Of a stretch of 64,000 bases of DNA, positions 18,463 to 46,397 are shown piece by piece. The position numbers were made by a program, and so were the translations under genes. The stretch's first letter is position 1, and the number at the start of each line of letters is the position of its first letter. The stretch covers positions 615 to 64,614 of the forward strand of contig JAFYDR010000158.1 of the NCBI GenBank assembly GCA_017544725.1, in the 5' to 3' direction. Below the pieces are notes generated by a model, which was not told the DNA's origin, made no database searches, and saw only the letters and a program-made list of their open reading frames with translations. The stretch is from Kiritimatiellia bacterium. GTDB taxonomy: Bacteria; Verrucomicrobiota; Kiritimatiellia; RFP12; UBA1067.

Positions 18463-18978
18463 ATGGACGAAAAATACATTCACAACCTTTCCGAAACGGA
18501 ATTTATTACGCCGGAACTGAAAACATGGTTTCAGGAAAACTGGATTGAGACACTGGAAGAAGCGGTGTCGGCACTGGCAGCGATGCCCGTCGAATTTTTG
18601 GGGAAAGAAGAGTTCCTGAAGCAAGCCAAAGAGACGCTAGGGGAGGAAAAGTTTCAAGAGCTCTCGACCGCGCTTCCACCGCATGCAAAAGGTCTGTGGA
18701 TGCCAACGGAACACGTACCCAAAAATCCGTCTGGCGAAAAGGAACCGGAGGCTACACAGGACGAAACAGAAAACGACACGGGGAACAACAGAGCGAATGC
18801 CGAAATGCCTTCCGCAAATCCAGCGGTGACACCGTCCGTAGAAACACAACCGTGTGAAACGAATAACCACAACGCGCCCACAGAGGACAAGGCGCAAGAT
18901 TCCACAACCAAAACTATTCATGAGGTATGCAAAACTTCCGCAGCCGATGGAGAAAACCATGATCAATCTCAGCAATAA
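18463..18978 (+). CDS. Hypothetical acidic protein sharing an N-terminal helical module with the next gene
   Basis: 171 aa. LSETEFITPELKTWFQENWIETLEEAVSALAA parallels LTDEQIQTLKSLWIETVEELFGCALAL of the C1 peptidase. The C-terminal half is low-complexity. Confidence 0.5.
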   Translation: MDEKYIHNLSETEFITPELKTWFQENWIETLEEAVSALAAMPVEFLGKEEFLKQAKETLGEEKFQELSTALPPHAKGLWMPTEHVPKNPSGEKEPEATQDETENDTGNNRANAEMPSANPAVTPSVETQPCETNNHNAPTEDKAQDSTTKTIHEVCKTSAADGENHDQSQQ

Positions 18979-21526: not shown

Positions 21527-21530
21527 AATT

Positions 21531-23878: not shown

Positions 23879-25849
23879 CTATTCGTGCGGTCCTGCGGAG
23901 CAAAGGAGGCGGAGCCCGATGGAGTTGAAGCGGCCGTCAGGGTCGTACCCGTAGCGGTACGCGGAGCGACAACCCCACGCGACGCTGCGCCAGCTGCCGC
24001 CGCGCAACACAAGGTACGACCCCGAGGACGGTCCGGTAGGATCGGTCACGCTTCCGGACGGATAGTCCCCGAACCAGTCCGAACACCACTCCCACACGTT
24101 CCCGTGCATGTCGCACAGACCCCAGGCGTTCGGCTTCTTCTGTCCCACGGGATGCGTCTTGTCCCCGCTATTCCCGTCGTACCATCCCATCTCGTCGAGA
24201 TTCCCCGAACCTCCGTAGGCTCCGGTCGTCCCCGCGCGGCAGGCGTACTCCCACTCCGCCTCCGTCGGCAGCCGTGCCCCGCAGTCCAGCGCCGAGTTCA
24301 CCTTCTTGATGAACTCCTGACAGTCATTCCACGAGACTTGCTCCACAGGAAGGTTCGCGCCTTTAAAGTTGGAAGGATTGTTCCCCATCACGCTCTCCCA
24401 CTGTTCCTGGGTCACGGGCGCCTCGCCCATCCAGAATCCGCGCGTCAGCGTCACCCGGTGCTGCGTCTCGTTGTCGTATCGTCCATCCTCTGATGTGGGG
24501 CTTCCCATCGTGAACGTCCCCGCAGGACACCAGCGGAAGCGCATCTCCGCGCCGCCGGGCAGGGTGAGCGTCTTTCCCTCCGCCATGTACCGCGCTTCAC
24601 GCGCCTTGCGCTCGGCGGCCTCGCGCACCCGGCGCACTTCCGCCAGCTTCTTCTCCAGCTCCGCTGCCTGACGCGCCTCCTCCGCGTCCCGGCGTTTCTT
24701 CTCCTCCGCCAGCTCGCGGGCTTTCCGTTCCGCCTCCGCCTTCTCTTTCGCCCTGCGTATTGCTTCCTGGACCTCGCGTTCCGCTTCACGCGCCGCCGCG
24801 AGTTCCGCCTCGATGGCCGCCTTCAGCTCCGCCTCCCGCCGGGACCACTCGTCCGTGTCCTCGCGCCCGTCAGTCCGTGCCTCCGTGCCGGACGACACCG
24901 ACACCGTGACCTTGGGAGGCTTTGCCGCAGAAGCGGTTTCTGGTTTCGCGCAGGACTTGCAGACGCCGGGTGTCCCGGAGGAGTGCGACAGGCAGAGGTT
25001 GTCCGCGCCGCACACCCGGCACCGAAACGTTTCCGTCACCAGGTTCTTCCTGCCGCACAGCGGGCACGCCACAACCTCCAGCGTCGGGCGAGGCGTCGGC
25101 TCCGCTCGTCCCGCCACCAGCACCACCCGCCCCCAGTTGGCGGAAAGCCGGATTTCCGGCGTCTGATTCAGCTGGAGGTCGTTCTCCACGGCGATCTCCC
25201 CCATCCGGTCATAGACAGACTTCAGGAACGACTGGTCGAACACCAGTTCTATTCCTGACCTCTTGCTGCCCCCGATCACCTCGTCCATCGCCAGCGAGAA
25301 GACCCCGCGACGCTTCGAGGGCAGCTCCAGCGCGCACTGCCCCTGCCCGCACGAGCGCATCACAGCCAGCCCACCGGTCCGCACGTTCTTCACGTAGCTG
25401 TCCGCCGACGGGAGGAGGTCGCGGGGTTGCCCCGCCCCGCGCGTCGTGAACGGGTTCGACCGGCACGCATCGACAATGAAGATGCGGCTCAGCCCCGCGC
25501 GTTCCGTCTCGGACTGGAGCAACCCGAACGGGATCCCCGCGAAGTTGTACTGGATATTCGCATACCGGTCGTCGCGGCAGAACAGCAGGTGGTCGTTCCC
25601 GCCTGGCGACGCGAACCCGTGCCCCGCGAAGTAGAAAAGAAACTCGTCGCCCTCACCCAGCCCGGCCGTGATCCGCCTGAACTCCCTCATCACCTGGTCG
25701 CGCGTCGGGTTCGGCAGCAGTACCGGGTCAAACCCGATCGCCCGGAACTGCGCGAGCATGAGCGCCGCGTCATTCGCCGCGCACTGCAAATCGTGGATAC
25801 CCTCGTCGTCATACTGGTCAACGCCTACAAACACCGCCTTCCGCTTCAT
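23879..25849 (-). CDS. Caspase (C14)-zinc ribbon-charged coiled coil-FGE-sulfatase (FGS) domain protein, paralog 1
   Basis: Caspase dyad contexts FYFAGHGF and FIVDACRS. CPLCGRKN...CRVCG...CKSC zinc ribbon. About 90 aa of E/R/K/A helix. FGS motifs RVTLTRGFWMGEAPVTQEQW, RLPTEAEWEYACRAGT, GLCDMHGNVWEWCSDW, LRGGSW. Confidence 0.85.
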   Translation of the reverse strand: MKRKAVFVGVDQYDDEGIHDLQCAANDAALMLAQFRAIGFDPVLLPNPTRDQVMREFRRITAGLGEGDEFLFYFAGHGFASPGGNDHLLFCRDDRYANIQYNFAGIPFGLLQSETERAGLSRIFIVDACRSNPFTTRGAGQPRDLLPSADSYVKNVRTGGLAVMRSCGQGQCALELPSKRRGVFSLAMDEVIGGSKRSGIELVFDQSFLKSVYDRMGEIAVENDLQLNQTPEIRLSANWGRVVLVAGRAEPTPRPTLEVVACPLCGRKNLVTETFRCRVCGADNLCLSHSSGTPGVCKSCAKPETASAAKPPKVTVSVSSGTEARTDGREDTDEWSRREAELKAAIEAELAAAREAEREVQEAIRRAKEKAEAERKARELAEEKKRRDAEEARQAAELEKKLAEVRRVREAAERKAREARYMAEGKTLTLPGGAEMRFRWCPAGTFTMGSPTSEDGRYDNETQHRVTLTRGFWMGEAPVTQEQWESVMGNNPSNFKGANLPVEQVSWNDCQEFIKKVNSALDCGARLPTEAEWEYACRAGTTGAYGGSGNLDEMGWYDGNSGDKTHPVGQKKPNAWGLCDMHGNVWEWCSDWFGDYPSGSVTDPTGPSSGSYLVLRGGSWRSVAWGCRSAYRYGYDPDGRFNSIGLRLLCSAGPHE

Positions 25850-25878
25850 ACCGATCTCCTCATTTTCTTTGACGGAAA

Positions 25879-25907
25879 AGCATACTAAACTTTTGCGTTT
25901 TCAGCAA
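25879..25907 (-). promoter_or_regulatory. Putative promoter TTGCTG-17-TATGCT in the conserved leader of paralog 1
   Basis: Minus-strand -35 at 25902-25907 and -10 at 25879-25884. It lies within a ~70-nt block conserved upstream of three caspase-FGS genes. Confidence 0.35.
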
Positions 25908-26010
25908 AGAAAAACGGAGGGGCGCTCCGCGTACTCTGCGACCTCAGCGGCTCTGCGTGAGAACCCAAACGCGGAATCTGGGCTTAACACGCTTAACCGG
26001 CCAACTTGCC

Positions 26011-27216
26011 TCACTCTGGAATCCAACCTTTGCCTTTACAAGAGCGGCAAGTTACATCCCCTAATAAACAACGGGGACAGGTTTCGGAAACGCGACCTGT
26101 GCCATCACATACCTGACACTTGGTTTTCCGCTGAACCATTCGAAATCCATTGCCGCTGCACGTATCACACTTGACAGGAATACACCCGTTCACATCATGA
26201 TACATACTGCTTTGACATAACACATAACCGCTGCCGCCACACTGATTGCACGGCACGAACATCAAGAACCCATTCTGTTTCCCGTGCGTACCGTTGAACA
26301 TCCAGACGCATTCCGTGCAAGGGCATCTGACATACCAGTTTCCATCCAATGCCCCACGCATACACTGATTGGGACACCGGATTAGCCGGTTCCCCAAGGT
26401 GCAATCCGAACATGTCTCCGTCTCCGTTGTCTGGATGTATCCATGATCACACGCATCACACCGTACCGACTTCTTCCCGGATCCATGACATTCAGGACAG
26501 GTTACACGCCCCTCCCCCTTACAATCGCCGCATTTGCGAAGCCAATGTCCTTCCTCCTTGGCTGCTTTGCGGTCGCCATCCAACATGCCAGGTGTCCATA
26601 CGAGTTCCGAAAGGCCATCCGCGTCTTTGTCTTTTCGAGAATATCCGGGCATCGGCTGCCAATAATCAGTCGGATGCTTGGCGGTGCTGATGGAAACCCA
26701 GTGCGGATATTTCACGCTTTCTATTCCCGCACGCCACTCCGTGTTCGAGCCACCCGTCCAGACATATCCTTCTTCTTTCGGTTTCCACTGGCCTTCTTTC
26801 TTCGTTGAAACCAATCTCCTGTTCTGTGGATGCGTCATACCCGCTTTCCACTTGACACGTTCCGTCCCGCGTATCCACTCATACCCGACAGATGTACTGC
26901 GCCATGTGCCCTCCTCCGTAGCCGAGACCAATTTCCCGTTCCGGGGATGCGTCACGCCGACCTTCCATTCGGTGCGCTCCGTTCCGCGCACCCATTCATA
27001 CCCGGCAAGCGTACTGCGCCATGCGCCCTCCTCCGTATCCGCGACCAGATACTTGTTCTGTGGATGCGTCATACCAACCTTCCATTCGACCAGATCGGTA
27101 CCATCCCCCGCCCACACATATCCGGGCGGAAGTTGCGGACGTGTTTCCTGTCCGGCAAGCGCAGTCAAACACCACAACAATAAACAGATTCGCACAACCC
27201 CCAGTCTTCTCTTCAT
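26011..27216 (-). CDS. Secreted protein: 39-aa tandem repeats + array of DnaJ-type CxxCxGxG zinc fingers
   Basis: Signal MKRRLGVVRICLLLWCLTALAG (ATG 27216 after GGGAGGG; the track start is TTG 27222). Repeats have the form GY.W..G....EWK.G.THP.N..LV....EG.W. The C-terminal half has CGDCKGEGRVTCPECHGSGK, CNQCGGSGYVLC, CDTCSGNG, CQVCDGTGR, CRSCKGKG. Confidence 0.7.
   Translation of the reverse strand: MKRRLGVVRICLLLWCLTALAGQETRPQLPPGYVWAGDGTDLVEWKVGMTHPQNKYLVADTEEGAWRSTLAGYEWVRGTERTEWKVGVTHPRNGKLVSATEEGTWRSTSVGYEWIRGTERVKWKAGMTHPQNRRLVSTKKEGQWKPKEEGYVWTGGSNTEWRAGIESVKYPHWVSISTAKHPTDYWQPMPGYSRKDKDADGLSELVWTPGMLDGDRKAAKEEGHWLRKCGDCKGEGRVTCPECHGSGKKSVRCDACDHGYIQTTETETCSDCTLGNRLIRCPNQCMRGALDGNWYVRCPCTECVWMFNGTHGKQNGFLMFVPCNQCGGSGYVLCQSSMYHDVNGCIPVKCDTCSGNGFRMVQRKTKCQVCDGTGRVSETCPRCLLGDVTCRSCKGKGWIPE
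26770..27123. repeat. 117-bp (39-codon) tandem repeat x3 (plus degenerate 4th) inside the CDS
   Basis: Protein residues 34-72, 73-112 and 113-151 align column by column. Confidence 0.8.
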
Positions 27217-27370
27217 CACCAACCCTCCCTGTCTATCAACTTCTCCGCATTCCCGCTTCTAACTTTTCGCCCGACGGTGCCTACCACCGCCTTCATATCC
27301 ATTCTCGTGTACAACGCGGACCACAGATCAACTGGTTATCACCGTTACAACACATCCACGGTTGTCCCGC

Positions 27371-27982
27371 TCACCATCCGACGCGGAAAACCGGGATGAA
27401 TTCGACCTTGGCATCCGACTCGATGTTGATCAGTCCCAGCTGGACTCCACACAAGGATTTCGCACGGTTCATCACACCAATCTGAAGCCCTGTCATCTTC
27501 GTTGCCATGTTCACCAGTCCGATTTGCGCCCCGTTGTATTCACCCATCGATACGTTCGTGAGACCGGCAATCTGAAGGCCGTTGAAGTACTCCCCGTCCG
27601 ACGCATTTGCAAAACCGGAAATCTGAATCCCGTTTCCTCTTTTGGAAATCTCATTCCCACCTCCCGCGATTTGCCACACGCCCGCAGTCGCATCTTCCGC
27701 GATATTCACAAGCCCTCCAATCTGGAATCCGCCCACGCTCGCATCGGAATTACAGAGCGCGGACGTGGCGATTCCGTAAAGCTCTTGGTGTCCACCTGCA
27801 AAACATCCCAATCGGTATCCGTAAATCGAGAAGGTACGCCCCGGCAACTGAAGATCTATATCCTTGGCCGCATCTTTCGCGGGTTTCGCACTTCCCGACC
27901 AGGAAAAGGCGAAAACCGATGTCCGCGCATGGACGGAACCAACCAATAAGAAAAACAGCAGCAAACAACCTATCCTTCGCAT
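27371..27982 (-). CDS. Secreted protein made of G-[LVI]-Q-[IL]-[AG]-G-x-x-N short repeats
   Basis: Signal MRRIGCLLLFFLLVGSVHA. Recurrent GFQIGGLVNIA, VWQIAGGGNE, GIQISGFANA, GLQIAGLTNV, GAQIGLVNMA, GLQIGVMNRA, GVQLGLINI. Confidence 0.6.
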   Translation of the reverse strand: MRRIGCLLLFFLLVGSVHARTSVFAFSWSGSAKPAKDAAKDIDLQLPGRTFSIYGYRLGCFAGGHQELYGIATSALCNSDASVGGFQIGGLVNIAEDATAGVWQIAGGGNEISKRGNGIQISGFANASDGEYFNGLQIAGLTNVSMGEYNGAQIGLVNMATKMTGLQIGVMNRAKSLCGVQLGLINIESDAKVEFIPVFRVGW

Positions 27983-27988: not shown

Positions 27989-28777
27989 TTACTCCTTTCC
28001 CTTCAGCAGTGTGCACCGATATGCTTCATTTTCAGCAAATCCCCATTCCTGCTTGAACGGATGATCCTCCGGCAGGGAAAAGACAACCGAGACGAACGGC
28101 ATCCCCTCGATCTGCCTTCGCGTGAGCCGGATGGGTTCTCCCCGTCTGGACTTCACCTCAAGCTCCGGGCACGAGAGAACCGCATCTTCCAAAAACACAC
28201 TGGTCTCATTCAGTCGTCTGCTGTCTGTTTCCTCCCGACTCTCCCATTTCTTGTATTTGCAGAACCCCAAGATCGGAGAAAGGGCAAACGCGGATTTCCC
28301 GAACACCGAGTCCTTCTGATCCCGTGTGACATACGTGAACGGCTCCACCAACAATCCGTACACCGTCGGAAGGCCAGCATACACCACATTGTACCAGCAC
28401 GCGCCCAACGCATTTCCCACCGCCCTGGATTGTTCCCCCTGACACCCCATGACGCCGGGGAAAAAACCGATTGCCCACCAGTGACCATCCCGGCTCGTGA
28501 TGTCGGTTGAGGTATGGACCTCCTTCTCGAATGCGCCGGACAACCGAATCCGAATCTCCACGTCCCCGTTTTCCAGGCGCGTTGCAACGGGTACGATCTC
28601 GCCGTCACGCGCCGACACCCGAAGCCACTTCACCGAGGTTTCGCGTGGCGTCCCGTTGACACTTCTGCCCGAGTCCGTCTGCACGGCAACGCAACCCGCC
28701 CCCAGCAGGGCACACCCTGCAAGCCCCAGCAAAAAGCCCGCACCGGCTCTACCCCAGTTTCTCCGTTTCATTGACAT
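27989..28777 (-). CDS. Lipoprotein, unknown function
   Basis: MSMKRRNWGRAGAGFLLGLAGC carries the lipobox L-A-G-C. 262 aa with no recognisable domain. Confidence 0.55.
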   Translation of the reverse strand: MSMKRRNWGRAGAGFLLGLAGCALLGAGCVAVQTDSGRSVNGTPRETSVKWLRVSARDGEIVPVATRLENGDVEIRIRLSGAFEKEVHTSTDITSRDGHWWAIGFFPGVMGCQGEQSRAVGNALGACWYNVVYAGLPTVYGLLVEPFTYVTRDQKDSVFGKSAFALSPILGFCKYKKWESREETDSRRLNETSVFLEDAVLSCPELEVKSRRGEPIRLTRRQIEGMPFVSVVFSLPEDHPFKQEWGFAENEAYRCTLLKGKE

Positions 28778-28785: not shown

Positions 28786-31473
28786 TTACTCCCTCTCGAT
28801 GATCCGTTCCTGCTTATTGATTCCCCGAACCAAGCCATGCAGACTGTAGTAAGACCGCACGGTTTTTCCGTTCTCCCTGCGAATGGCAAGGATTTTGTTC
28901 TTGTCACTACCCACATCCTTCTCTGGTATCACCAGATAAACGGAAGCGCATTTCGTCTCCGGGTCAATCTCCACGCATCTGTCGTTCCCCGTCGAGGATA
29001 ACGGCAGTCCGATATTCTCGTACATCTTCGCCCCGGACCGGATTCCATAGGCGACGATCTCGACAATGTAGGGAAGCTGACTCCGCACACTTTCCATGCC
29101 GGATTGGATCTCGCGAATCCGTTGGGCGTTCGCCGACGATGCGCCTTTTGCGGACGGCAGCGTTTTCGCCGTCTGCGAAAGGTTTTGCAGACATTCCTGC
29201 ACCGCGCGGACTTTCCTGTCCGCCCGCAATGTCTGTCCGGTTGCCTCGGCCTTTTTCTGCGCCTGCTTGAGCAGATTCTCGCAGACGTCCAGCCGCTCCT
29301 TCCACTCCTGCTCGATGCGTTTTCTCTCCTGCTCGGCACGGGCCTCTTCTTCCCTGCGCTTCGCGTCGAGCCGATCCTTGAGATTTTTCCGGAGCGAGGC
29401 AAGCACACGCGACTCCTCAGGCGTCGCAACCAGTTTCTCGGCTTGATTCGCCGCCCCGTCAAAGGCCGCCGCGTCCAGCGATTCGAGCGCCGTCTCCGCC
29501 ACCTCCATCAACTGCCGCAACCGAGCCTTCCTGGCAACCTCCGCGATCGCCTGTTTCAAGCGTTTGTCGGCCTCTCCGATCCGATGTTCACCGGAGGCGA
29601 TTTCCGCCTCCTGCATGGGAAACCGGTAATCAGGGGCGTTCAGCTGCCTGAAGTCCGGGTATTTCGCGTACTGGGAAAAATTCGTGTACACGGCAAACAC
29701 CGCGCGATAGTCCGCCAGCAGCTCTGACTGGATCGTTTTGATCGCGTTCGTAAACGCTACGCAATACCCATCCGCCTCTTTCATCGCCCGGCGCATCCTG
29801 TCCACCTGCAATCCGGAATCGCATAACCTCGCCCAAAGATCGTTTCGTATCGAGTTCTCTGGCGTGATGTGCAACATCGGGAAATTCCACAGTCCCTTAA
29901 CCCGCTTCCGCACTTCCTCCCAATCATTGGCGCGTTGCGTTTCCGGATACTGCAACAGCTGTTCGATCTCGCCGGCAAGACGCTGATTCTCCCGTTCACA
30001 GTACCGCGCCGCACCGCAATACGCGCCATACACCATGCCGGCTAGTAACAGAATCGCCGCTGCGCGTTTGAGAAAGGTGAAGAAACGTTGCCTCCGGTGT
30101 ACCTTTTCAGCCGCCAACTCGTCGCAAGCCGCCGAAACGCTCTGGCGCACCCACTCCATATAATCGATGCCCTCTCCGGTGTCCACGTTGAATCCGTAAA
30201 GCACCGGGGCGAATGTGGTTTCCGCCTCTTGAGCGACATTGTCGGCAAGCTGTATAAGCGTATTGTCATCGCGGATCCGGGATGTTGTCCCGGTTTTGAT
30301 GACTTTCAGTATCTGCCGCATCCAGACCTCATCCACCTTCAGCCGCCCCCTCCACTTATCATGGGCAGCCTTCACATCATCGTCCGCTATCGTCGCGTTA
30401 CGATAGAGGATCTGCGTACGAGACTGGTTCAAGTTCCCGGGGTTGCCGACATACGCGAGACACCCAACCCTGAACGAATCTGCCGCCGCAATAAATTCTC
30501 TCAGAACCTGAAGCCGTTCCGTTAACACCGAACGGATAGCGAGCTGACGCGCGAACTCGTTACGCAACCGGAGATACTCCAGATATCGATTTTTCAATTC
30601 GTATAGAGCATCTCCCTTCCCCGCCACGATCCCACCGACCGTGAGCAAGAAACCGAAAAGCCCGTCCGACTCGATTGACGGCGGCACCGCGTTCTCGGAA
30701 TTCAGCTCGTTTACCGCAGAGACGCAAATAATCGGGACCTTATGATTCTGAACCTGTTGCATGAGGCTTTGCGCACCGCGTTCGCAGAGATACAAGGTCG
30801 GGCCACCAGTATTCTCAATCGTTTCCCGGACCAGATGCGTCTGGGTGAGGACCAGCAGCGATTTTCGGGCAAGCTCCGCGTCTTTTCTCAACAGCCGCCA
30901 GAAGGTATCCACCGAGTCCTCGAAGTTCTTCCGGAGAGCCTTTCCGGTACTGCCATCCGGATATGCTGCGGCGTTGATAAACAGGCAGACGAGCGTCGCC
31001 TCCTTCACGGCTTGGCGGATTTCCTCGACGCGGAACTCCCCGGAACTGGACACCGATCCACTCGCTGAGAGCAACGCATCATCCGCCGCAGCACCCGCCC
31101 CTGAATAGGAAGCACTCTCGCCGCCAAAGTCCACCGCGAACGCCTTGCGAATCTGTTCGCCCGAACAGTCCATCGTCGCCAAGTCAAAGATCGGCCGCGC
31201 ACCCGTATAAACCGTCCAGTGGAGCTGGGTCATCTCGTCCTCTCGGGTGTTGGCGAGCCACTCCCTGTTGTTACAAAGCTCGCTGTACTTCCTGTTCACC
31301 AGCTTCCTGGTTTCGTCGCTCTGCGGTTCGAGACGGAAACCGAGCGGCGCAGCAGTACCGCCCTCCTCCAGCAGCATATACTTCATGCCCAAGACGGAAA
31401 GGAATACGGTCTTCCCGCTTCGCTGCACCCCCAGAATAAACACCTTCGGAACTTTCTGGTTTTCTGTCGTCAT
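28786..31473 (-). CDS. Membrane-anchored TRAFAC-like P-loop GTPase, paralog A (long coiled-coil C-terminal region)
   Basis: G1 GVQRSGKTVFLS, G3-like MDCSGEQ, G4-position LVLTQTHL, G5-like ICVSAVN, conserved ESDGLFGFLLTVGGIVAG. One mid-protein TM (AAAILLLAGMVYGAYCGAA), then a helical/coiled-coil tail. Confidence 0.7.
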   Translation of the reverse strand: MTTENQKVPKVFILGVQRSGKTVFLSVLGMKYMLLEEGGTAAPLGFRLEPQSDETRKLVNRKYSELCNNREWLANTREDEMTQLHWTVYTGARPIFDLATMDCSGEQIRKAFAVDFGGESASYSGAGAAADDALLSASGSVSSSGEFRVEEIRQAVKEATLVCLFINAAAYPDGSTGKALRKNFEDSVDTFWRLLRKDAELARKSLLVLTQTHLVRETIENTGGPTLYLCERGAQSLMQQVQNHKVPIICVSAVNELNSENAVPPSIESDGLFGFLLTVGGIVAGKGDALYELKNRYLEYLRLRNEFARQLAIRSVLTERLQVLREFIAAADSFRVGCLAYVGNPGNLNQSRTQILYRNATIADDDVKAAHDKWRGRLKVDEVWMRQILKVIKTGTTSRIRDDNTLIQLADNVAQEAETTFAPVLYGFNVDTGEGIDYMEWVRQSVSAACDELAAEKVHRRQRFFTFLKRAAAILLLAGMVYGAYCGAARYCERENQRLAGEIEQLLQYPETQRANDWEEVRKRVKGLWNFPMLHITPENSIRNDLWARLCDSGLQVDRMRRAMKEADGYCVAFTNAIKTIQSELLADYRAVFAVYTNFSQYAKYPDFRQLNAPDYRFPMQEAEIASGEHRIGEADKRLKQAIAEVARKARLRQLMEVAETALESLDAAAFDGAANQAEKLVATPEESRVLASLRKNLKDRLDAKRREEEARAEQERKRIEQEWKERLDVCENLLKQAQKKAEATGQTLRADRKVRAVQECLQNLSQTAKTLPSAKGASSANAQRIREIQSGMESVRSQLPYIVEIVAYGIRSGAKMYENIGLPLSSTGNDRCVEIDPETKCASVYLVIPEKDVGSDKNKILAIRRENGKTVRSYYSLHGLVRGINKQERIIERE

Positions 31474-31540: not shown

Positions 31541-33667
31541 TCACGAATCGGGAACGAGAACAACGCGGAAGCCTAGGTTGTGGTCACGGTGGCCCGGTCC
31601 ACCCCAGCTTCGGGATGCGGAACGGCAGAGGTCTGCGTCATGCTTCCAGCTCCCGCCACGAATCACGCGGTACGTTCCTTGGGATGGCCCGACCGGATCG
31701 GTCACGCTTCGGCTCGGATAGTCCCCGTACCAATCCGCGCACCACTCGCACACATTCCCGTGCATGTCGTACAGACCCCAGGCGTTGGATGCCTTCGTTC
31801 CCACCGGATGAGGTTCGTTTCCGCTGTTTCCGCCATACCACCCCATCCCATCCAGACTCCCCGTACCGCTGTAGGGAGTGTTCGTCCCCGCCCGGCAGGC
31901 ATATTCCCATTCCGCCTCCGTCGGCAGACGCATTCCGCAACCAGTCACCGCGTTCACCTTTTCGACGAACGCCTGACAGCTGAGCCAGGAAACATTCTGT
32001 TGGGGCAGCTGTTTCTCACCATCCGCAAATCCCTTGCTTTTCAAGTAGTCCAGCACCTTACCGAAAGTAGTCAGCTTTTCCGCTTCTTCCTCGGAAATCG
32101 TGGCTCCGAACTCCTCTTCAAACCCCATGACCAACTCAACAGCATCCAATGAATCCGCGCCCAGATCGGAAACAAACGAAGCGTTTCTGGTTACCTGACC
32201 GGCATCAACCCCCAGTTGCTCGATGACAACATCCCGGGCCTTCCGTTCCATCGTTCCGGCAGACGGATTTGTTTCCATCACACTGTCCCACTGTTCCCGC
32301 GTCACGGGAAACCGCCCCATCCAGAAACCCTTGGTCAACGTCACGCGATGCCGAACCTCCCGGCCGTCGCGACCGCTTTCGGACATTGGACTGCCCATCT
32401 CGAACGTACCGGGCGGACACCACCGGAACTCCATCTTCACCTGACCCGGTAGCACGATCTGCTTCGTCTCCCCCGCCCGCAAAACGGGGGGGGGCGGCAC
32501 CGACGGAGCATCACCATAAACGGATAGAAACATCTTCACGAGCGGCTTGGCGTCAAGTCCTACGCATTCGGCGTACAGACGGACAAAACCTTTCCCATAG
32601 ATGCTCGCTTGAACACGCCGATAATCATCGTTCTCCAAATCTTGGATGATTTGGGCAAGCAGTCCCGTCGCGGAGGCAACTTGAGCGACAGAGAGTTTTT
32701 TCGCTTCCCGCGCATTCCGCAGAATTTCGCCCAAAGTCGAATCGCCCGTCGGTTGGGAGACGTTTGCCGTCCCTTTCGCGGCGCACTCGGCACAACAGTT
32801 TGACGATGCCTCATAATGCCGCTTGCAGAGGTAGTCCCGGCCGCAGATACGACACTGAAAGGTCTCCGATTCCTCATTCCGAAACCCGCAGGAAGGACAT
32901 TTCACAATCCGAGGCGACACCGTAGTACGCCCCGCGACAAGCACCACGTGTCCCCAGTTGGCGGACATTTTGATTTCCGGCGTCTGGTTCAACCGAAGAC
33001 GGTTCTCGCGGGCAATCTCGCCCATCTTGCCGTACACCAGCTGGGCGAACGACTGGTCGAACGCCAGCTCACCCCCGTTCCGCCGACATCCGTCTATCAC
33101 GCGGTCCAGCGCCAGCGAAAAGACACCTCGCCGCTCCGAAGGCAACTCCAGCGCACACTCTCCGGGAGCGCATGAACGCATCACCGCCAACCCGCCGGAT
33201 CGCACGTTCTTCACATAGCTGTCCGCCGACGGGAGAAGGTCGCGCGTTTGTTCCGTGCCCCGCGTCGTGAACGGATTTGACTGGCACGCATCCAAGATGA
33301 ACATACGGTTGAACCCTGTTCGCTCCGTCTTGGCCTGAAGCATCCCGAATGGGATTCCCGCATAATTGAACTGGATGTTCTCATAGAAATCATCCCGGCA
33401 AAACAGCAGATGTTCGCCGCCCGGCGCGATGAACCCATGTCCCGCAAAGTAAAAAAGAAATTCGTCGCCCGCGCCAAGTCCTTCCGTCATCCTGACAAAT
33501 TCTTTCATCACCTGGTCACGGTTCGGATTCGTCAGCAGGCCAGCCTCGTAACCGATTGCACGAAACTGCGAGAGTATGAGCGCCGCGTCATTCGCCGCGC
33601 ACTGCAAATCATGGATGCTCCCGTCATCGTATTGGTCAACCCCTACGAAAAGTGCTTTCCGTTTCAT
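31541..33667 (-). CDS. Caspase-zinc ribbon-RodZ-like HTH-FGS protein with an acyl-carrier-protein module inserted in the FGS domain, paralog 2
   Basis: Start MKRKALFVGVDQYDD (ATG 33667; the track start is 33685). FYFAGHGF / ILDACQS. CPSCG...CRICG...CAEC. HTH LGEILRNAREAKKLSVAQVASATGLLAQIIQDLENDDY...GKGFVRLYAECVGLD. ACP-like VIEQLGVDAGQVTRNASFVSDLGADSLDAVELVMGFEEEFG lies between FGS motifs VTREQWDSVMETNPS and VSWLSCQAF. Confidence 0.85.
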   Translation of the reverse strand: MKRKALFVGVDQYDDGSIHDLQCAANDAALILSQFRAIGYEAGLLTNPNRDQVMKEFVRMTEGLGAGDEFLFYFAGHGFIAPGGEHLLFCRDDFYENIQFNYAGIPFGMLQAKTERTGFNRMFILDACQSNPFTTRGTEQTRDLLPSADSYVKNVRSGGLAVMRSCAPGECALELPSERRGVFSLALDRVIDGCRRNGGELAFDQSFAQLVYGKMGEIARENRLRLNQTPEIKMSANWGHVVLVAGRTTVSPRIVKCPSCGFRNEESETFQCRICGRDYLCKRHYEASSNCCAECAAKGTANVSQPTGDSTLGEILRNAREAKKLSVAQVASATGLLAQIIQDLENDDYRRVQASIYGKGFVRLYAECVGLDAKPLVKMFLSVYGDAPSVPPPPVLRAGETKQIVLPGQVKMEFRWCPPGTFEMGSPMSESGRDGREVRHRVTLTKGFWMGRFPVTREQWDSVMETNPSAGTMERKARDVVIEQLGVDAGQVTRNASFVSDLGADSLDAVELVMGFEEEFGATISEEEAEKLTTFGKVLDYLKSKGFADGEKQLPQQNVSWLSCQAFVEKVNAVTGCGMRLPTEAEWEYACRAGTNTPYSGTGSLDGMGWYGGNSGNEPHPVGTKASNAWGLYDMHGNVCEWCADWYGDYPSRSVTDPVGPSQGTYRVIRGGSWKHDADLCRSASRSWGGPGHRDHNLGFRVVLVPDS

Positions 33668-33700
33668 CGTCCCCTGACTCCTCAATTCCTTTGACGGAAA

Positions 33701-33729
33701 AGCATACTAAACTTTTGCATTTTCCGCAA
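33701..33729 (-). promoter_or_regulatory. Putative promoter TTGCGG-17-TATGCT in the conserved leader of paralog 2
   Basis: Minus-strand -35 at 33724-33729 and -10 at 33701-33706; GAGGAG RBS before the ATG at 33667. Confidence 0.35.
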
Positions 33730-33849
33730 AGAAAAACGGATGGGGAGGCAATAGCGGGAGGGGCGCGCTCCGTCGCGACCGCGTGAACTTATCTCACGCA
33801 GTGATTCGCTGAGGCCGCAGAGAGATGAGCCGCCTTCACGCCAGCTCGT

Positions 33850-36324
33850 TCATAACACGGAAACGAGGGCAACGCGGAACCCCTGGTTGTCAGCGGGCGG
33901 GGCATCACCCGGTTTGCAGCTGCGGCGAGCCGAGCGGCAGTCGCTTGCTTCCCGAGACCAGCTTCCGCCGCGTCTCAAACGAATATCACCCGATGACGAG
34001 CCGGTTGGATTGGTCACGCTGGAGGAAGGGTATCCCCCGTATCGGTCTGCGCACCATTCCCACACGTTCCCGTGCATATCGTACAGTCCCCAGGCGTTCG
34101 GCTTCTTCTGCTTTACGGGGTGCGTCTTGTTTTCGCTGTTGTCGCGAAACCACCCCATTTCGTACAAATTCCCCGTGCCGCCGTAGGCACCGGTCGTCCC
34201 CGCGCGGCAGGCGTACTCCCATTCCGCCTCTGTTGGCAGACGCATCCCGCACCCCAACTCCTCGTTTACCTTCTGGATGAATCTCTGGCAGTCTCCCCAA
34301 GAAACCCTCTCCACGGGGCGAAGATCCCTAGCAAGAAAACTCAAAACCAAATCCTTGACGGGAAAACAGGACAATTCCATCCTCTGGAATCTTGCGGGAT
34401 TGCTCTTCATCACGCTTTCCCACTGACGTTGCGTCACAGGCGTATCCGCCATCCAGAAACCCCTCGTCAGCGTTACGCGATGCAACGTCTCATCCCAAGA
34501 CCGTCCCTCCTCGGAAGCCGGGCTTCCTATCTCGAATGTGCCGGGCGGACACCAGCGGAACCGCATCTCCGCGCCTCCCGGCAGTGTGATCACCTTCTCC
34601 GATCCAGGTTTTCTCTCCGAATCCTCACGGATCTCCCTCGCCTTTGTTTTGGAGTGCATATATTTTCTCACCTCGTCCGGCAACCTTTTGCAACAGAATA
34701 AAGAGAGACGAGTCCAAACCCTTCGAATGAGGAAAGCCAACTCCCCCAATTTTTCCTTTGCGGTTTCCGCATAATATGTTAGTTTCCCTTTACTCGCCGA
34801 CTCTTCCCTTTTCTTATTCAGGCGGGAAAGGAAAAACAGAAACAAAAAAATGAAAGGTACGGCTCCGACCACATACCAGAGCCTTGACCACGGCAGAAGC
34901 CATCCAAACCCTAGGTAAAGAGCCGATAGGGCACCCGAAATCGCGGCGCGCATTTTCTTACGGGCTTCATCGTATTGGATTCGTGACACAAGGCTTTCGG
35001 CGCTTGCCTTGACCCATTCGCGGTAGGAATTCAGCCGACTCCCTTCAGTGGAAATCCTTTCTTCAAACCCGTATAACACCGCATCCAATCCAGGAGAGAG
35101 CTCCCGTTCCTTGCGGATAGAATCGCCCAGCGTCCGAAGTTCTTCATCCGTGAAAACAGGCGTTCCGTGTGTCCCTTCCATTTTTTTACAGACTAGGGAA
35201 TAAAGCCTGTCGTACCAGTCCTCGTCAATTACCAAGCGATCACGCCATAATTCGGAAGCCTCACGAATCTCCGCATCCTTACGCGTCGCCTCCTCGTAGA
35301 AAGGCAGTTCCTTCACGGACTCTGCGAGATTCGCTGATTTGCGGACATACCGGAAGCACCTGTTGCGAAAAGTCTCGGCTGCCCGGGCAAAACTTCGTAA
35401 CGCATCCACCCGTTCTGGAAGTGGAGATCGATTGCGCAGGTGACGGGCCACCTCGTTGCGCGTATTCAAGTAGGCGAAATACGAGTTCTTGAGCTTCAGA
35501 AGAGCCGGGCGAGCATCATGGACAAGTCCCGCGACCGACAGCAGGAAACCAAAAAGACCATCCGACTCAATCGTTTCCGGCGGTTTTTTATTGTCATAAT
35601 TCAACTCATTCACCGCCGAGATGCAGATAATCGGAACTTGGTGTCTGTCCACCACCTGCAGGAGGTCAGGCGCACGTCTGCCTAGATAGAGGAACGCCCC
35701 GCCCGCGTTCTGGATCTCCTCTCGCAACAAGTGTGTCTGCGTGAGCACGACCAGAGACTTCTTCGCAATGTCGGGGTGATCGTTCAACAAACTCCAAAAG
35801 ATTTTCACCGTCTCCGCGAAATTCCGCCTCTTCTCCTCACGAACCGCCTCATCACAAGAGGTACCCACATTGATGAACAAGCATACGAGACCAGCTCGAA
35901 ATACCGCCGTGCGGATCTCACGCTGCCGACTCTCCGCCTGCGTCTCGGATGTCCCCAGCAGCACATCCGCAACCATCCCACCGTCATTCCCCGGCGCAAA
36001 CGCCTTTCGGATATCTTCCCCGGAACAGTCCATCGTCTCCAGCGAGAACACATGCCGCCGACCGGTATAGACATTCCAAGACAGCTTAGTCGGATCGCTC
36101 TCCTTTGTAGGCTCTGGCCACTCCCGAATCTCGAGTTTTTGGCATGCGTCGATTACCACATTTCGCGTCACGGTGTTGACCGGCTCCATACGAAACCCAA
36201 GAGCCTCCGCTCTGTCACTGCCGCCGGCAATCATATACTTCCGTCCCAGCACGGAAAGACAGACCGTCTTTCCGCTGGACTGGATTCCCAGAATAACTAC
36301 TTCAGGTGTTGCTCTATTTTCCAT
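33850..36324 (-). CDS. TRAFAC-like P-loop GTPase (paralog B) - 2 TM - FGS domain fusion
   Basis: N-terminus [50 protein letters not shown]. Hydrophobic [39 protein letters not shown]. C-terminal FGS: [59 protein letters not shown]. Confidence 0.8.
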   Translation of the reverse strand: [824 protein letters not shown]

Positions 36325-38869
36325 TCCCCTGTCTCGCTTCGATTTTCGCTCTCTTCAGACGGTTCATGGCCAGTCTGATTCCCAATGCGACCGCCTCACA
36401 ATCCTTGTCCGACTCGGAGAATTGGAAATCCGGACTGTTCAACTGTTCGAAGGTTGGAATTTTCGCATACCGGGAGAGTTGGCGGCACATTTCCAATAAT
36501 CCGTCACGATCCGCAATCAGAGCAGCTTGTACCTTGTCGGGAGCTTCCGCAAACGCCGCGCAATAGTCATTCGCCCGTTTCAACACCTCGCGTATCTTGT
36601 CCAAACGCTCACGGGAGCTGTAGTCTCCGACTCGTTCCAAAAAATCTTCCCGAATGTATGGGGTTGGCGTGATTCCGAGCCACGGATAATTCCTGACCAT
36701 TTGGGCTTTTTCTCGCAAAGCATCCCAGTCGCAGTCGTACACCCGCTCCAAATCCCGCAACATTATTTCGATCTCTTCATCCCTGAACTTGGGGTCTCCC
36801 GACTTCGCGTCAGCCGCATCCGCTGCGGCTTTTGCCTTTTTCGCGCCGTAAATCCCCGACATCCGATTGGTTTCCGGGTTCTTCAAATAACGGGCGATCT
36901 CTTCGGCGATCTGCCGATTCTCATTTTCGCAGTACCATTTCGCGCCGTAATAACCGCCGCATCCGATGACGGCTAGTACCAGCAACGTCACGAGGCGACG
37001 GCGGAATGTGCGGAACCTCTGCTGCCGCCGTGCGCGGTTAGCAGCTGTCAATTCATCCTTGACCTGCCCAATCTCACGCATCGAGATTTCATCCGGATGT
37101 TTTTTGGAGAAGGGATCCCGCACTGCCATCCGTTCCAATTCACGCAGCGCCTTCTTCGCTTCTGAAAATTGCCCCTGCTCCATCTGGCTCCGGACAGACT
37201 TCAACTTGGAGAGGATTACCTCCCTGACTTGCAGCGCTTTCTCGTTGCAATTCATCAGTCCAGAACACTCGTCCAGAATTTTCCGGCGTTCATTTTCAAA
37301 TCCTGAAAGCCGCCACTTCTTCCAATCCAAACCATCGCCGTAATCCTGCCACACGATGCAAAATCGGTCGATGATCTTCTCCAGTTCCTTGCATTGTTCC
37401 GCGAGTTCGTTTGCGGATTGCTCGAACCCGTCCTTCCCGACCGCGCCGCGCAATTGGTTGATTCCCGTCCGGATCGTCTTGACCATGTTCTCCAGCGCAG
37501 CCCAGTCCCCGGATCGCGCGATCGGCATCACCTCTACGCTCTGCCGTACCCATTCTTCATAGTCAATGCCACTGCCGATATTCGTATCGTACCCGTACAG
37601 GAGCGGATCGAACGTGACATTCGCCTCGCGCTTGACGGCATCAATCAGCACAGGGCCATCGGTATCGCGAAACTGGACCGAAGTCCGCCTTCCAACAAGT
37701 TTGAGCATCCGCCGCATCCAGATCTCGTCCACCCGCAACCGATCCCGCCACTTGTTCCCGGCAGACTCGACATCACCGTCCTGTTCCGTCGCGATGCGAT
37801 AAAGGTTCTCGATCCGATGCTGGTTCATATTCGCCGGATCACAGACATACTCAAAGCAACCGTTACGGAACGCCTCCGCCGCAACGACAAACTCCTTCAG
37901 GACAGGGAAACGGCTCGGCAGTATCGCACGGATGGCGAGTTGGCGCGCAAACTCGTTGCGGTGCCAAAGGTACTCCAGATACCTGTTTTTCAACGCGAAG
38001 AGCTTATCTTTCTTCCCCGCCACAATCCCGCCGACCGTGAGCAAGAAACCGAAAAGCCCGTCCGACTCGATCGGGTCCGGAACCATGTTCTCGGAACTCG
38101 TCTCGTTCACAGCCGAGACGCAGATGATGGGAATCTTGTACCGCTCGACTTCCTGCTGGAGATGTTGCGCACCACGTTCGCAGAGATACAGCGATGGACC
38201 CCCCACACTCTCAATCGTTTCGCGGACCAAATGCGTCTGGGTCAGAACCAGCAGCGACTTGCCGGCCAGCTCGGTATCCTTTTTCAGCAGTCGCCAGAAG
38301 GTGTTGACCGTATCTTCAAAATTCTTCTGGAGCGCCGCGCCCGCCCCGCCGGACGGATACTCCGCCGCATTCACAAAGAGGCAGACAAGCGAAGCCTCCT
38401 TTACCGCCGCGCGGATCTCCTCCACCCGGAACTCGCCGGATCCAGACCCCGTTCCGTTCGCGGACAACAGCGCGTCCGTCACCATATCCGAATCGGACGG
38501 TTCGGAAGGTGTTCCGAATCCCTCGGCATCTACCGCGAATGCCTTGCGAATCTGCTCGCCGGAGCAGTCCATCGTCGCCAGGTCGAAGATCGGACGGTCC
38601 CCCGTGTAAACCGTCCAGTGCAACCGGGTCATGTCATCCTCGCTGGTACTGGCAACCCATCTTCCGTTCTTCAGCTCCGCGTACTTTTTCCGTACCAGCT
38701 CCACGGTTTTATCACTCTGCGGAACCAGTCTGAAACCAAGCGGCGCGGCCTCGTTGCCTTGCGCCAGAAGCATGAACTTCGTACCCAAAACAGAAAGAAA
38801 AACTGTCTTCCCGCTTCGCTGCACCCCTAGGATAAACACCTTCGGTACTTTTCGGATTTCCTGTTCCAT
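36314..38869 (-). CDS. Membrane-anchored TRAFAC-like P-loop GTPase, paralog C
   Basis: The N-terminal ~330 aa are near-collinear with paralog A ([53 protein letters not shown]). TM [18 protein letters not shown]. ATG at 38869 gives [15 protein letters not shown], matching A; the track start is GTG 38887. 11-nt overlap with gene B. Confidence 0.7.
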   Translation of the reverse strand: [851 protein letters not shown]

Positions 38870-38926
38870 ACTTTTCTCATGCCCCACGCTGCCACACCAG
38901 ACACACCATGCAAATCCCGCACCGCT

Positions 38927-40675
38927 TCAACAACACCTGATCGCGATGATAACAACCAGTATGATCACGATAACAACAAAAATCCCACAGGACGTGTCAG
39001 AAGAAGGTTTGGGCTGCGGCATCGACTGATGATGAAGTTCCTTCAGCTTTTCCAAGCCTTCCTGGCATCGCTTGTATCGCTGTTTCAGATCTGTCATCGC
39101 GACCGAGACCAGATCCCTGTTTTCAGTCGCTCCACAAAGCCTACCGAGTTTCTCAAGACCTCCATCGATTTTGGATGCGATTTTCTGGAAATCATCCACG
39201 GCCTCCGGGAACGAAAATCCGCCTACGACTGACTCCGCCGCGGCAAGGCTTTCCTCCAGTTCCCCGACCTGATTCCGAAGCTTCCCCACCTTGTTCGCCA
39301 GCATCACGGAAATCATCGCCATGCCAGCCCGCACCCAGGCAACGCGATCCTCATACGGAGACCGCCGCAGGTCAATGCTCTCGTTAAACCCGAAGACCGC
39401 GTCCTCTCCGCTTTCCGGAAAGGACTTCATGACACTTGCGATCAAGTCTGTAACGTCCCGGTCGCGAATCTTGCTCTCCACCTCATCCTCTTCCTCGTCG
39501 GGACGAACCAGATTCACGCGCCCGTACGCGCAGAGTTTTTCATTCCACACCTCATCGATCCGCAGACGATCCTTCCACAGGTTCTCCGCCTCGCGGATGT
39601 CACCCTCCACGCGCGTGGTCGCGCGGTATTTACTGCCGGGAAACTTTTCTTTCAGATTCTCCGTATCCTTGAGGTAATCCAAACATCCCTTGCGGAAATC
39701 GGAAGCCGCTTGTGAAAACTTGCGCAAATGGAAAAGACGTTCTGGCAGAGGACTGCATAGCCAAAGGTGCCGTGCGACCTGATCGCGGGAACGGAGATAG
39801 TCATAATACAGGCCTTTCAGTTTCCCCAGCGGGTCTTTCTTCCCCGCCACGATCCCGCCGACCGTGAGCAGGAAACCGAAGAGTCCGTCCGACTCGATCT
39901 TCTCCGGTACCGCATTCTCGGAACTCGTCTCGTTCACCGCCGAGACGCAGATGATCGGAACCTTGCGACGCTCGATCTGCTGCTGGAGATGCGGCATCGA
40001 TTTTTCCAAGTAAAGGAAGGGACCTCCGGCGTTCCGGATCTCCTCACGAGCCAAATGAGTCTGCGTCAGCACAAGCAGACACTTCGAGGCGATTTCGGGG
40101 TGGCTGTTCAACAGATCCCAGTAGCAATCCGCCGCATCCTTCAAGCCTTGGTATTTCTCCGGATCCCGATCCGCCCCCTCCCGCAGCGCGGACACATTGA
40201 TGAAAAGGCAGACGAGCTTTGCCCGATCCACCTTCTCCCGCAACTCGTCCACGCGGCTGTTCCTTTGTGATACTTCACCGGCATCGGTTTTGAGAAGCGC
40301 GTCCGAATTGCCCCCGTCCCCCTGCGATTTCGATTCCCGGTTCAGGAAAGCATCCTTGATATCCTCCCCCGACCAGTCCGAGGTCGAGAGGTCGAATATT
40401 TTGCGCTTCCCCGTACAGACCTCCCAGCGCAATTCGGTGACCGCCCCCCTGACAGTCGCGCGCGGCCATCCGCCCCGCAACAGATGCTCGTACTCGCGAT
40501 TCATCAGCCCGAGCGTTTCTTTGTCCTTGGCGATCATCCGGAATCCCAAGGGCGCGACATTGCCACCGTCGGCGGACAAGGCGTATTTGCTACCCAGCAC
40601 CGACAGAAAAACCGTCTTCCCGCTCGACGGCATCCCCAGAATCACAACTTCCGGCATCCCATCATTTTCCGTCAT
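38927..40675 (-). CDS. Tail-anchored TRAFAC-like P-loop GTPase, paralog D
   Basis: [19 protein letters not shown] (D-x-x-G kept), [35 protein letters not shown]. C-terminal TM [20 protein letters not shown]. Confidence 0.7.
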   Translation of the reverse strand: [582 protein letters not shown]

Positions 40676-45768: not shown

Positions 45769-45791
45769 AACAAAACTTCAGAATCTGGGAA

Positions 45792-46397
45792 TCAGGCCAG
45801 AACCGCCTTCGCCTCGATCTGTTTCCGGATTTCCGCCTTCTTAACGGGATCCGGCTCCGCGTCGAACTTGGCGTACAACTGATCCAGTTCATTCGCAAGG
45901 GAAGCGTGTGATTCCGGCTCTTCACAAGCGAGTGCGGCCCCCATCGCGTCCCCGAGCTTCTTGACGACAGCCAACATCTCCTGGATCTCGTCCTGCATGG
46001 AGTCGATCGACTTCTGCCAATCCACGGTGGATGTCTTTTCATCAACCAGCCCGTTCTCCTTCATCTGCTCCACGATCTGCATCGTGGTCTCCAGCAGCGT
46101 GTAGTACCCGAGCTGAGTGAGGAAATTCGAGGCGAATCCTGCCTCCATCTTCGCGCGTTGCATATCCGCATCGGCCTTGCGAAAGAGGCTTGCGCGTTCA
46201 GCCGGCTTCGTCTCCGCAGCAAACGACAGTTCCCGTTTCTTCAGCGACTCCGCCTCGGCAGTGATCGCCGCCTTTTTATGCTTCTCGACCATCCGCCGAA
46301 TATCGGGGATCTTCTTGTGTACATCCGACAACTTCAACTGCGCCGGCCTGATACCCGCCAAAACCGCCACTTTTTCTATCAAACTCTCATCGCTCAT
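45792..46397 (-). CDS. All-helical ESCRT-III/Snf7-like protein (201 aa)
   Basis: No TM and predicted long helices. Basic N-half and acidic C-half (SIDSMQDEIQEMLAVVKKLGDAMG...ANELDQLYAKFDAEPD). GGGAGGA RBS; sandwiched between Vps4-like genes. Confidence 0.45.
   Translation of the reverse strand: MSDESLIEKVAVLAGIRPAQLKLSDVHKKIPDIRRMVEKHKKAAITAEAESLKKRELSFAAETKPAERASLFRKADADMQRAKMEAGFASNFLTQLGYYTLLETTMQIVEQMKENGLVDEKTSTVDWQKSIDSMQDEIQEMLAVVKKLGDAMGAALACEEPESHASLANELDQLYAKFDAEPDPVKKAEIRKQIEAKAVLA

Follow-up and report, generated by a model that had tools for sequence, protein, structure and literature searches.

A housekeeping-type acyl carrier protein inserted into the FGE-sulfatase domain of a caspase-type conflict protein from an uncultured Kiritimatiellia bacterium

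We here describe a caspase-type conflict (immune-like) protein encoded in the metagenome-assembled genome (MAG) of an uncultured gut Kiritimatiellia bacterium, within a stretch of 64,000 nucleotides (assembly GCA_017544725.1, contig JAFYDR010000158.1, positions 615 to 64,614 of the forward strand; hereafter the window). The protein combines a caspase, a zinc ribbon, a RodZ-like helix-turn-helix (HTH) and an FGE-sulfatase (FGS) domain, and a loop of the FGS domain holds an entire acyl carrier protein (ACP), spliced in frame. As judged by its profile and database matches, this graft is more than a generic carrier domain, being the lineage's own housekeeping AcpP of type II fatty acid synthesis (FAS-II), captured nearly end to end.

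A complete AcpP within the FGS domain

The gene and those of its parts that define the graft are located as follows.

31541..33667, minus strand: gene for the 708-residue protein with caspase, zinc ribbon, RodZ-like HTH and FGS(AcpP), starting at the ATG at 33667
32261..32419, minus strand: N-terminal part of the FGS domain (FGS-N), ending in ...PVTREQWDSVMETNPS (placed by Pfam, paralog alignment and DNA repeats)
32027..32260, minus strand: insert of 78 residues, a complete AcpP-type ACP (AGT-MERKARD...DYLKSKGF), placed by alignment to four FGS paralogs
32150..32152, minus strand: codon for the phosphopantetheine-attachment Ser of the DSLD motif, S512 of the 714-residue open reading frame (ORF) and S506 of the 708-residue protein
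31559..32026, minus strand: C-terminal part of the FGS domain (FGS-C), ADGEKQLPQQNVSW...GFRVV (placed by Pfam and searches for structural relatives)

A sequence-only reading of the window had proposed that a complete carrier-protein fold is grafted into an FGS loop, and this was borne out by profile matches, by the alignment of the paralogs and by a confident AlphaFold2 model. That reading had placed the serine codon exactly, at 32150–32152, and its translation of the ORF was correct, as were the two paralog junctions that it quoted, NPSNFKGANLPVEQVSW and NPSKFTGNDALPVEQISW; its boundaries for the insert, 32018–32257, were a few bases off and are here refined to 32027–32260. The insert hence covers residues 476–553 of the 714-residue ORF, or 470–547 of the 708-residue protein. 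At the DNA level, the FGS-N repeat is shifted by 7890 nt relative to paralog 1 and the FGS-C repeat by 7656 nt, which leaves a gap of 234 nt, equal to 78 codons, and the other homologs all align as two adjacent pieces that skip query residues ~71–153.

The FGS domain was matched by PF03781 (residues 423–709, E 1e-45, profile positions 8–254 of 255) as one stretch spanning the insert, and nested within it at residues 484–548 was a match to PP-binding (PF00550), with an E-value of 4.2e-11 and 43.4 bits against a cut-off of 20.8. The NCBIfam equivalog TIGR00517 (acyl_carrier) matched the insert over profile positions 5–76 of 77 with 91.8 bits, for a cut-off of 70.45, and gave 91.1 bits for the insert of the ortholog described below. 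The possible objection that no significant profile match would be found thereby fails, and the earlier designation as an 'ACP/PCP module' stands as regards the carrier domain and can be sharpened to the AcpP of the lineage's own FAS-II. Over its full length, the insert is 69–73% identical to free 79-residue AcpPs of Kiritimatiellae, Lentisphaerae and Spartobacteria, it keeps the lineage-typical C-terminus DYLKSKGF, and it matches AcpP in the Protein Data Bank (PDB) with an E-value of 6e-21. A free Kiritimatiellia homolog (L003) sits directly 3′ of fabD and fabG; in contrast to such free AcpPs of ~80 residues in fab clusters, the insert is embedded in a protein of 708 residues with no fab genes nearby. 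By these alignments, essentially all of acpP was spliced in frame into the FGS gene, no more than its first two or three codons being missing.

Conservation, selection and predicted fold of the graft

The identical junction was found in at least five assemblies. An ortholog of 79% identity (P0002), from a different and independent ENA assembly (locus L001), carries it, as do two near-identical strain variants (P0390 and P0391, the latter from metagenome sample ERZ28653445) and a 236-residue fragment (P0289) that begins at the Met of the insert. This fragment was the sole relevant match for an FGS(ACP) query among the best 150, which were mostly proteins with many FGS repeats. In a Nei–Gojobori comparison of the window with L001, the ratio of nonsynonymous to synonymous substitution rates (dN/dS) was 0.13 for the ACP core, at a dS of 0.82, and 0.157 for the whole gene, and the insert differed from that of a 98.4%-identical strain variant (L044) at eight synonymous and no nonsynonymous sites. 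By these substitution patterns, the graft is under purifying selection and is selectively maintained. An assembly chimera, which the sequence-only reading had named as a possible objection, was ruled out by the junction shared between the at least five assemblies, including P0002, P0390, P0391 and P0289, together with the divergence of the 79%-identical ortholog and the selection data.

We also modelled the FGS and ACP parts together with AlphaFold2, using an alignment that held both types of homologs, which gave a mean predicted local distance difference test score (pLDDT) of 93.7 and a predicted template-modelling score (pTM) of 0.84. The ACP helices lie at model residues 70–86, 107–121, 127–132 and 136–145, with pLDDT values of 83–95 for the block, and the attachment Ser is model residue 107, the first of helix II. 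Confidence was somewhat lower only in two linkers, and the objection that the insert might be disordered fails with both parts being confidently modelled. The graft is accordingly predicted to fold as a four-helix bundle, an ACP fold being expected here as the alignment contained free ACPs.

As for further instances of such a fusion, no other ACP fusion appeared in the homolog lists, which is weak evidence given that a search with the ACP alone missed even the window protein itself (P0001) and that one with the caspase N-terminus gave 12 matches in all. Scanning the genome contigs for the junction gave ordinary free-standing acpP genes only, and the scan of viral contigs gave no fusion and one ordinary phage ACP, of 47% identity.

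Divergence of the graft from free AcpP

We compared the two known grafts site by site with 112 free AcpPs. Neither DSLD nor the acidic helix II used for recognition has changed in the grafts, where DSLD, E41, E47–E49 and F50 match residues present in at least 109 of the 112 free proteins. Both grafts have 12 derived substitutions in common, including V7A, I10V, I11V, T39A and V65F; every one of the 112 free AcpPs has V7 and I10, and A39 and F65 are found in none of them. Also among the 12 are E5R/Q, E20G/S, E25N and E53T/S. The net charge goes from −14 in free AcpP to −8 and −10 in the grafts, with the four to six lost negative charges located on the helix I/loop I side. Taken together, the substitutions common to both grafts and the drop in charge point to a single ancient capture event, after which the graft would have evolved under a new constraint.

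The FGS domain as host of the graft

Among solved structures, the FGS part was closest to TvpA, the variable protein of a diversity-generating retroelement (DGR) of Treponema denticola (PDB 2y3c; phmmer E 4.6e-32, Foldseek E 3e-21, TMt 0.72). The enzyme FGE has a catalytic, copper-binding Cys pair (C336/C341 in human FGE). This pair is absent from the FGS domain studied here, which has a single Cys (GGSWKHDADLCRS) and aligned to 6muj and 2aft without the conserved pair. On these comparisons the domain is of the binding, non-enzymatic type, and the idea of an FGS enzyme acting on an ACP-tethered substrate was ruled out by the missing catalytic pair and by TvpA being the closest relative.

Within 31559–31700, the six residues that follow GGSW read KHDADL in the window protein and SQEARF in the P0002 ortholog, differing at five of six positions, and the post-GGSW stretch is the most variable region among the FGS paralogs. 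The dN/dS of FGS-C, 0.27 in the comparison of the window with P0002, was also the highest in the gene. This stretch behaves like a DGR-type variable region, without a reverse transcriptase in the window: none was found among the window ORFs of at least 200 residues that were scanned, nor in the L001 locus, and the direct repeats of at least 50 nt all belonged to paralog sets or to a shared upstream element, bar one tandem repeat within ORF 26011–27222, and gave no candidate for a template repeat. A DGR-diversified FGS was rejected for the window on these grounds.

The graft is situated in the FGS loop that joins the first helix of the domain to the second. This loop is short in TvpA and in most relatives, and we consider it a permissive site because other family members hold insertions of 20–50 residues there. 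The termini of ACP would also lie near each other, although a literature search on ACP cyclisation turned up nothing on this point. The graft illustrates cleanly how, in nature, a folded domain can be placed inside a loop of a C-type-lectin fold. In one relative (P0088, residues ~382–399), the equivalent loop has an insertion of ~30 residues containing MLERLGVEAKDVLKVESF; aligned to VIEQLGVDAGQVTRNASF of ACP helix I/loop I, it scored 38, with shuffled sequences at 21.2 ± 4.0 (p ~0.003, uncorrected for about six loops tested). The P0088 loop might be what remains of an ACP graft, or the likeness could be due to chance.

Host-protein modules in related proteins

We surveyed ~130 relatives of the caspase/zinc-ribbon core for further modules derived from host proteins. 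One of them (P0017), in which residues 295–490 and 1053–1115 carry excised host modules, contained the apical domain of GroEL (GroEL residues 191–372, E 1.7e-45), a piece that was missed by the Pfam scan (E ≤ 0.001) as well as by the precomputed Pfam list. Another (P0037, residues 323–434) held the nucleotide-binding subdomain IIB of DnaK (residues 219–319, E 1e-27). The C-terminal domain (CTD) of ribosomal protein L7/L12 was found in six relatives, five of which were recovered a second time, and an RRM in P0098 (residues 510–580). Ten sequences had the RodZ-like HTH, among them four copies of the window protein. Seen within this family, the ACP graft is one case of a recurrent capture of modules from host hub proteins, and it was the only host module among the relatives found inside an FGS fold.

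Possible functions of the graft

Tentatively, and at what we judge to be somewhat less than an even chance, we propose by analogy that the AcpP graft serves as a host-protein bait integrated on a sensor domain. AcpP would be the essential hub that is bound or modified by an invader factor from a phage, a plasmid or a toxin, and a factor directed at AcpP or its phosphopantetheine arm would then also engage the graft. As the graft lies inside the FGS fold, its engagement could be relayed through a change in conformation or oligomeric state, which would license the caspase at the N-terminus, with the neighbouring DO-GTPase probably acting as the controlling switch. The caspase would then cleave its targets, thereby aborting the infection. 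The ACP-free paralogs of the same island would cover other ligands. The support for a bait is circumstantial and comes from the relatives, with their excised host hub modules (GroEL, DnaK IIB, L7/L12 CTD and RRM). A decoy or bait, or else a borrowed inactive module, had also been suggested by the sequence-only reading.

Several points weigh against a bait. Our literature searches gave no phage or toxin factor that targets AcpP, and the data fit a host-directed role, as set out below, equally well. The host modules of the relatives are separate domains and not FGS inserts. The architecture is also very rare, with two clusters at 90% identity among the proteins searched, because of which no comparative statistics are possible, and the placement of ACP relative to FGS in the AlphaFold2 model rests on two sequences having both parts. 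Furthermore, L12/ClpS and HSP70 have been read as multimerising modules and not as decoys (Kaur et al., PMC7159879, PMC8195603).

A broader form of the bait proposal, which we regard as somewhat doubtful, is that the caspase/zinc-ribbon family as such might be a prokaryotic counterpart of the plant nucleotide-binding leucine-rich repeat receptors with integrated domains (NLR-IDs), with baits taken from essential hubs, so that invader factors attacking these hubs would trip a protease. The baits would in such a case include AcpP, the GroEL apical domain, DnaK IIB, the L7/L12 CTD, the RodZ HTH and the RRM. If this were true, they would form a catalogue of the host processes that are attacked by phages of uncultured bacteria of the Planctomycetes–Verrucomicrobia–Chlamydiae (PVC) group, and fatty acid and ACP metabolism would be an unrecognised target of invaders. 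For testing, the graft provides a compact construct, with one serine and one cassette of 78 residues.

A host-directed module, which we hold to be unlikely albeit a serious contender, would bind the cell's own ACP-partner enzymes (FabD/F/H/Z, LpxA/D, PlsX, AcpS and others). The caspase might in this way be tethered to ACP partners that are cleaved upon its activation, or a dominant-negative, 'jammed' ACP could halt lipid synthesis once exposed or released, with growth arrest or abortive infection as the outcome. By the same logic, the modules of the relatives would act on the partners of their parent proteins, with the L12 CTD titrating EF-G and EF-Tu, the GroEL apical domain GroES or substrates, and DnaK IIB GrpE. 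Such a role would agree with the surface read by the partners (DSLD and the acidic helix II) being kept invariant in the graft and with the grafted modules of the relatives all being isolated interaction domains of essential hubs. An excess of apo-ACP is moreover toxic to E. coli. Proteolytic release of fused effectors was also proposed for such systems by Kaur et al. However, an always-exposed mimic of ACP should be costly unless masked, and the graft is lodged within a binding domain of the sensor type and not placed beside the protease. The changes at four to six acidic residues, and at several sites that do not vary in free AcpP, also argue that it would no longer be the best fit for every FAS enzyme. 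If it worked as a bait or as a host-directed handle, the graft would make AcpP and lipid synthesis a likely battleground between Kiritimatiellia and their invaders. It would also imply that bacterial immune-like proteins can take up an essential protein of the host cell in its entirety, through insertion as a domain, a principle of host-domain integration that is well established for plant NLRs and only hypothesised for bacteria.

It is distinctly improbable, in our view, that the graft instead acts as a cofactor-dependent carrier, made holo by AcpS, in which the phosphopantetheine or an acyl group would be the functional element, be it as a plug or ligand for the FGS pocket, as a reporter of acyl-ACP/CoA status or as a lipid handle for the membrane. 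The Ser and all the residues of helix II that are recognised by AcpS and partners were kept in both orthologs while other positions drifted, and the graft scores above the threshold of the AcpP equivalog, as would be expected for such a carrier. In the enzymes EgtB and FGE, folds of the FGE family are also known to hold ligands that contain a thiol. Against this stands that the FGS domain lacks the Cys pair of FGE and is nearest to the non-enzymatic TvpA, that four paralogs work without any graft, and that no gene for a phosphopantetheinyl transferase (PPTase), FAS or polyketide synthase (PKS), or adenylation or other acyl-activating enzyme was found in the window or in the L001 locus. In addition, neither graft has kept V7, I10, I11 and V65, which do not vary among the 112 free AcpPs and which we regard as belonging to the core or pocket.

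A functionless passenger, i.e. an accidental in-frame capture of acpP (or an artefact) tolerated in a loop where other family members tolerate 20–50 residues, might explain the extreme rarity of the architecture and the misnaming of the whole protein as 'acyl carrier protein' by PGAP, but with its junction shared by at least five assemblies and a 79%-identical ortholog at a dS of ~0.8, its intact reading frame and confident fold, and the low dN/dS of the ACP core with solely synonymous differences to the strain variant, we find it highly improbable, the selection data essentially excluding a neutral passenger.

Gene architecture and genomic context

The remaining features of the gene and its upstream region are as follows.

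33678..33744, minus strand: conserved upstream element of 67 nt, ending in a GAGGAG Shine–Dalgarno sequence (repeat family D16)
33083..33664, minus strand: Peptidase_C14 (caspase), residues 8–201 of the 714-residue ORF (PF00656, E 8.2e-15)
32768..32902, minus strand: Cys-rich zinc ribbon (VKCPSCGF...CRICG...CCAECA), from a reading of the sequence
32540..32725, minus strand: HTH_25, like the cytoplasmic N-terminal HTH of RodZ (residues 321–382, Pfam E 1.6e-17)

The caspase was also matched by the PADLOC caspase profile (E 6e-12), and the positions of its His/Cys dyad, FAGHG and LDACQS, were both present, with the dyad assigned by eye from the sequence. The zinc ribbon is a hallmark of the family, being found in 87 of the ~130 relatives, and the HTH had PDB matches to 2wus_R (RodZ) and 3fym, with the NCBIfam RodZ model matching at E 7e-12, under its cut-off. 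The mechanical ORF (31541..33685, minus strand, 714 residues) opens with a TTG at 33685, and the true start is likely the ATG at 33667 given the position of the 67-nt element, the GAGGAG of which is ~11 nt before this ATG. The 708-residue protein starting there is identical to NCBI MBR4171228.1. That public record names this caspase/FGS protein 'acyl carrier protein', a misleading annotation error caused by the graft, which arose because the whole protein exceeds the cut-off of the AcpP model (86 bits against 70.45).

The 67-nt element is found upstream of three caspase-FGS paralogs, at 33678–33744, 25856–25922 and 54563–54629, with 93% and 73% identity of the other copies to that at 25856–25922. 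The element is probably a promoter or 5′ leader common to the three genes, pointing to co-regulation of the caspase-FGS paralogs.

The gene is part of an island of ~31 kb on the minus strand of the Kiritimatiellia MAG. The island has five FGS genes (four caspase-FGS and one GTPase-like-FGS), one of which holds the ACP insert, as well as a separate caspase gene, four DO-GTPase1-like genes (one being the GTPase-like-FGS gene) and two genes for Vps4-like AAA ATPases. Those of most relevance to the graft gene are the following.

28786..31473, minus strand: DO-GTPase-like gene with a P-loop N-terminus, downstream of the graft gene
27989–28777 and 27371–27982: two small genes beyond the downstream DO-GTPase-like gene
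33850..36324, minus strand: upstream paralogous gene with DO-GTPase-like N-terminus, transmembrane segment and FGS without ACP
23879..25849, minus strand: closest caspase-FGS paralog, without insert, its FGS being 61–62% identical
50154–51866 and 51917–54595 (with LysM), minus strand: caspase-FGS paralogs without insert

The downstream DO-GTPase-like gene and the two small genes also adjoin the ortholog P0002 in L001. The FGS domain of the upstream gene holds an insert of ~20 residues in the loop equivalent to that of the graft. Scored against the Pfam DO-GTPase1 model PF19975 (cut-off 27), the four GTPase-like genes at 38927–40675, 36314–38887, 28786–31473 and 33850–36324 reached 34.9, 26.8, 20.2 and 13.8 bits, respectively, one of the four passing the cut-off. 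No Pfam match to the GAP1 family was found in the neighbouring ORFs even at E ≤ 1, in a search of limited sensitivity.

Some further observations were made in and around the island. The two Vps4-like AAA ATPases (44491–45768, with Vps4_C, and 47188–48423, both on the minus strand) have upstream of them ORFs of ~200 residues (45792–46397 and 48420–49034) with weak Pfam matches to Snf7/ESCRT-III (E ~0.04–0.06), and the region 44491–49034 may thus be a duplicated ESCRT-III/Vps4-like membrane-remodelling pair. An ORF of 403 residues (26011–27222, minus strand) contains a tandem duplication of 117 nt (26791–27024, 73% identity) and ends in a region resembling the CXXCXGXG zinc finger of DnaJ. The island is flanked at 18854–23159 (plus strand) by genes for a papain-like Peptidase_C1 protein of 890 residues and a DUF4384 protein, and at 11271–12872 (minus strand) by one for a Schlafen/AlbA_2 + HATPase_c_4 + Fic-like_C protein; these flanking genes may be further conflict-related genes.

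Comparison with known systems

The ACP-in-FGS protein is a variation on known FGS/caspase conflict systems, one for which we found no published precedent; our literature searches gave nothing relevant on GroEL or ACP modules in bacterial immune proteins. It shares with the NTP-dependent and DO-GTPase conflict systems (Kaur, Burroughs, Iyer, Aravind, eLife 2020, PMC7159879; Kaur et al., eLife 2021, PMC8195603) the same vocabulary of caspase, FGS, zinc ribbon, Sel1 and kinase, and as in those systems, diversified paralogs are gathered in one island, here with genes resembling DO-GTPase1 adjacent. The DO-GTPase genes of those systems often come as two paralogs, with a GAP1 component (GAP1-N/M/C domains) beside the GTPase. 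The present case differs in that one of the four GTPase-like genes passes the Pfam cut-off for DO-GTPase1, in that no GAP1 or DGR reverse transcriptase was detectable and in its host being a member of Kiritimatiellia. In the same two papers, direct binding of invader molecules was put forward as the role of FGS and decoys were discussed explicitly as a concept, and we found no mention in them or their supplements of an ACP/PP-binding or GroEL module.

Compared with housekeeping AcpP (TIGR00517; PDB 2ehs, 1l0h and 1acp), the graft is alike in the Ser of DSLD, the acidic helix II and the four-helix fold, and is unlike it in being embedded in a protein of 708 residues, in the 12 derived substitutions and in its lower net charge. 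The FGS domain resembles TvpA and other DGR variable proteins in its fold, its non-enzymatic nature and its variable C-terminal binding surface, whereas the loop that houses the ACP is short in TvpA, and no reverse transcriptase or template repeat was found in the window.

The likeness to plant NLR-IDs, such as those with WRKY in RRS1 or HMA in RGA5 and Pik-1 (integrated-decoy model of Cesari et al. 2014, as cited in PMC11702601), is a functional analogy and not one of membership. In the NLR-ID model, a receptor contains a domain that mimics a host protein targeted by pathogen effectors and is activated when this domain is engaged. A close copy of a host protein is indeed what we found here, our literature searches giving no effector aimed at it, and in both groups the set of integrated host domains differs from paralog to paralog. 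Unlike in NLR-IDs, the scaffold is caspase/FGS and not NB-ARC/LRR, and the domain is inserted within another fold. The integrated-decoy model has been invoked, hypothetically, for a bacterial NLR (PMC11702601).

The statement of the sequence-only reading that it knew of no precedent for this architecture agrees with our literature searches as regards ACP in FGS. However, the decoy idea as well as the insertion of L12 or ClpS were already described in PMC7159879. These L12/ClpS insertions, in the vWA component of beta-propeller ternary systems, are the nearest precedent for the ACP graft: there too, a housekeeping domain is placed at varying points in a conflict protein, and L7/L12 CTD modules are also present in the caspase family to which the graft gene belongs. 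They differ from the present case in the protein that hosts the insertion and in the domain inserted, and they were read by their authors as multimerising modules.

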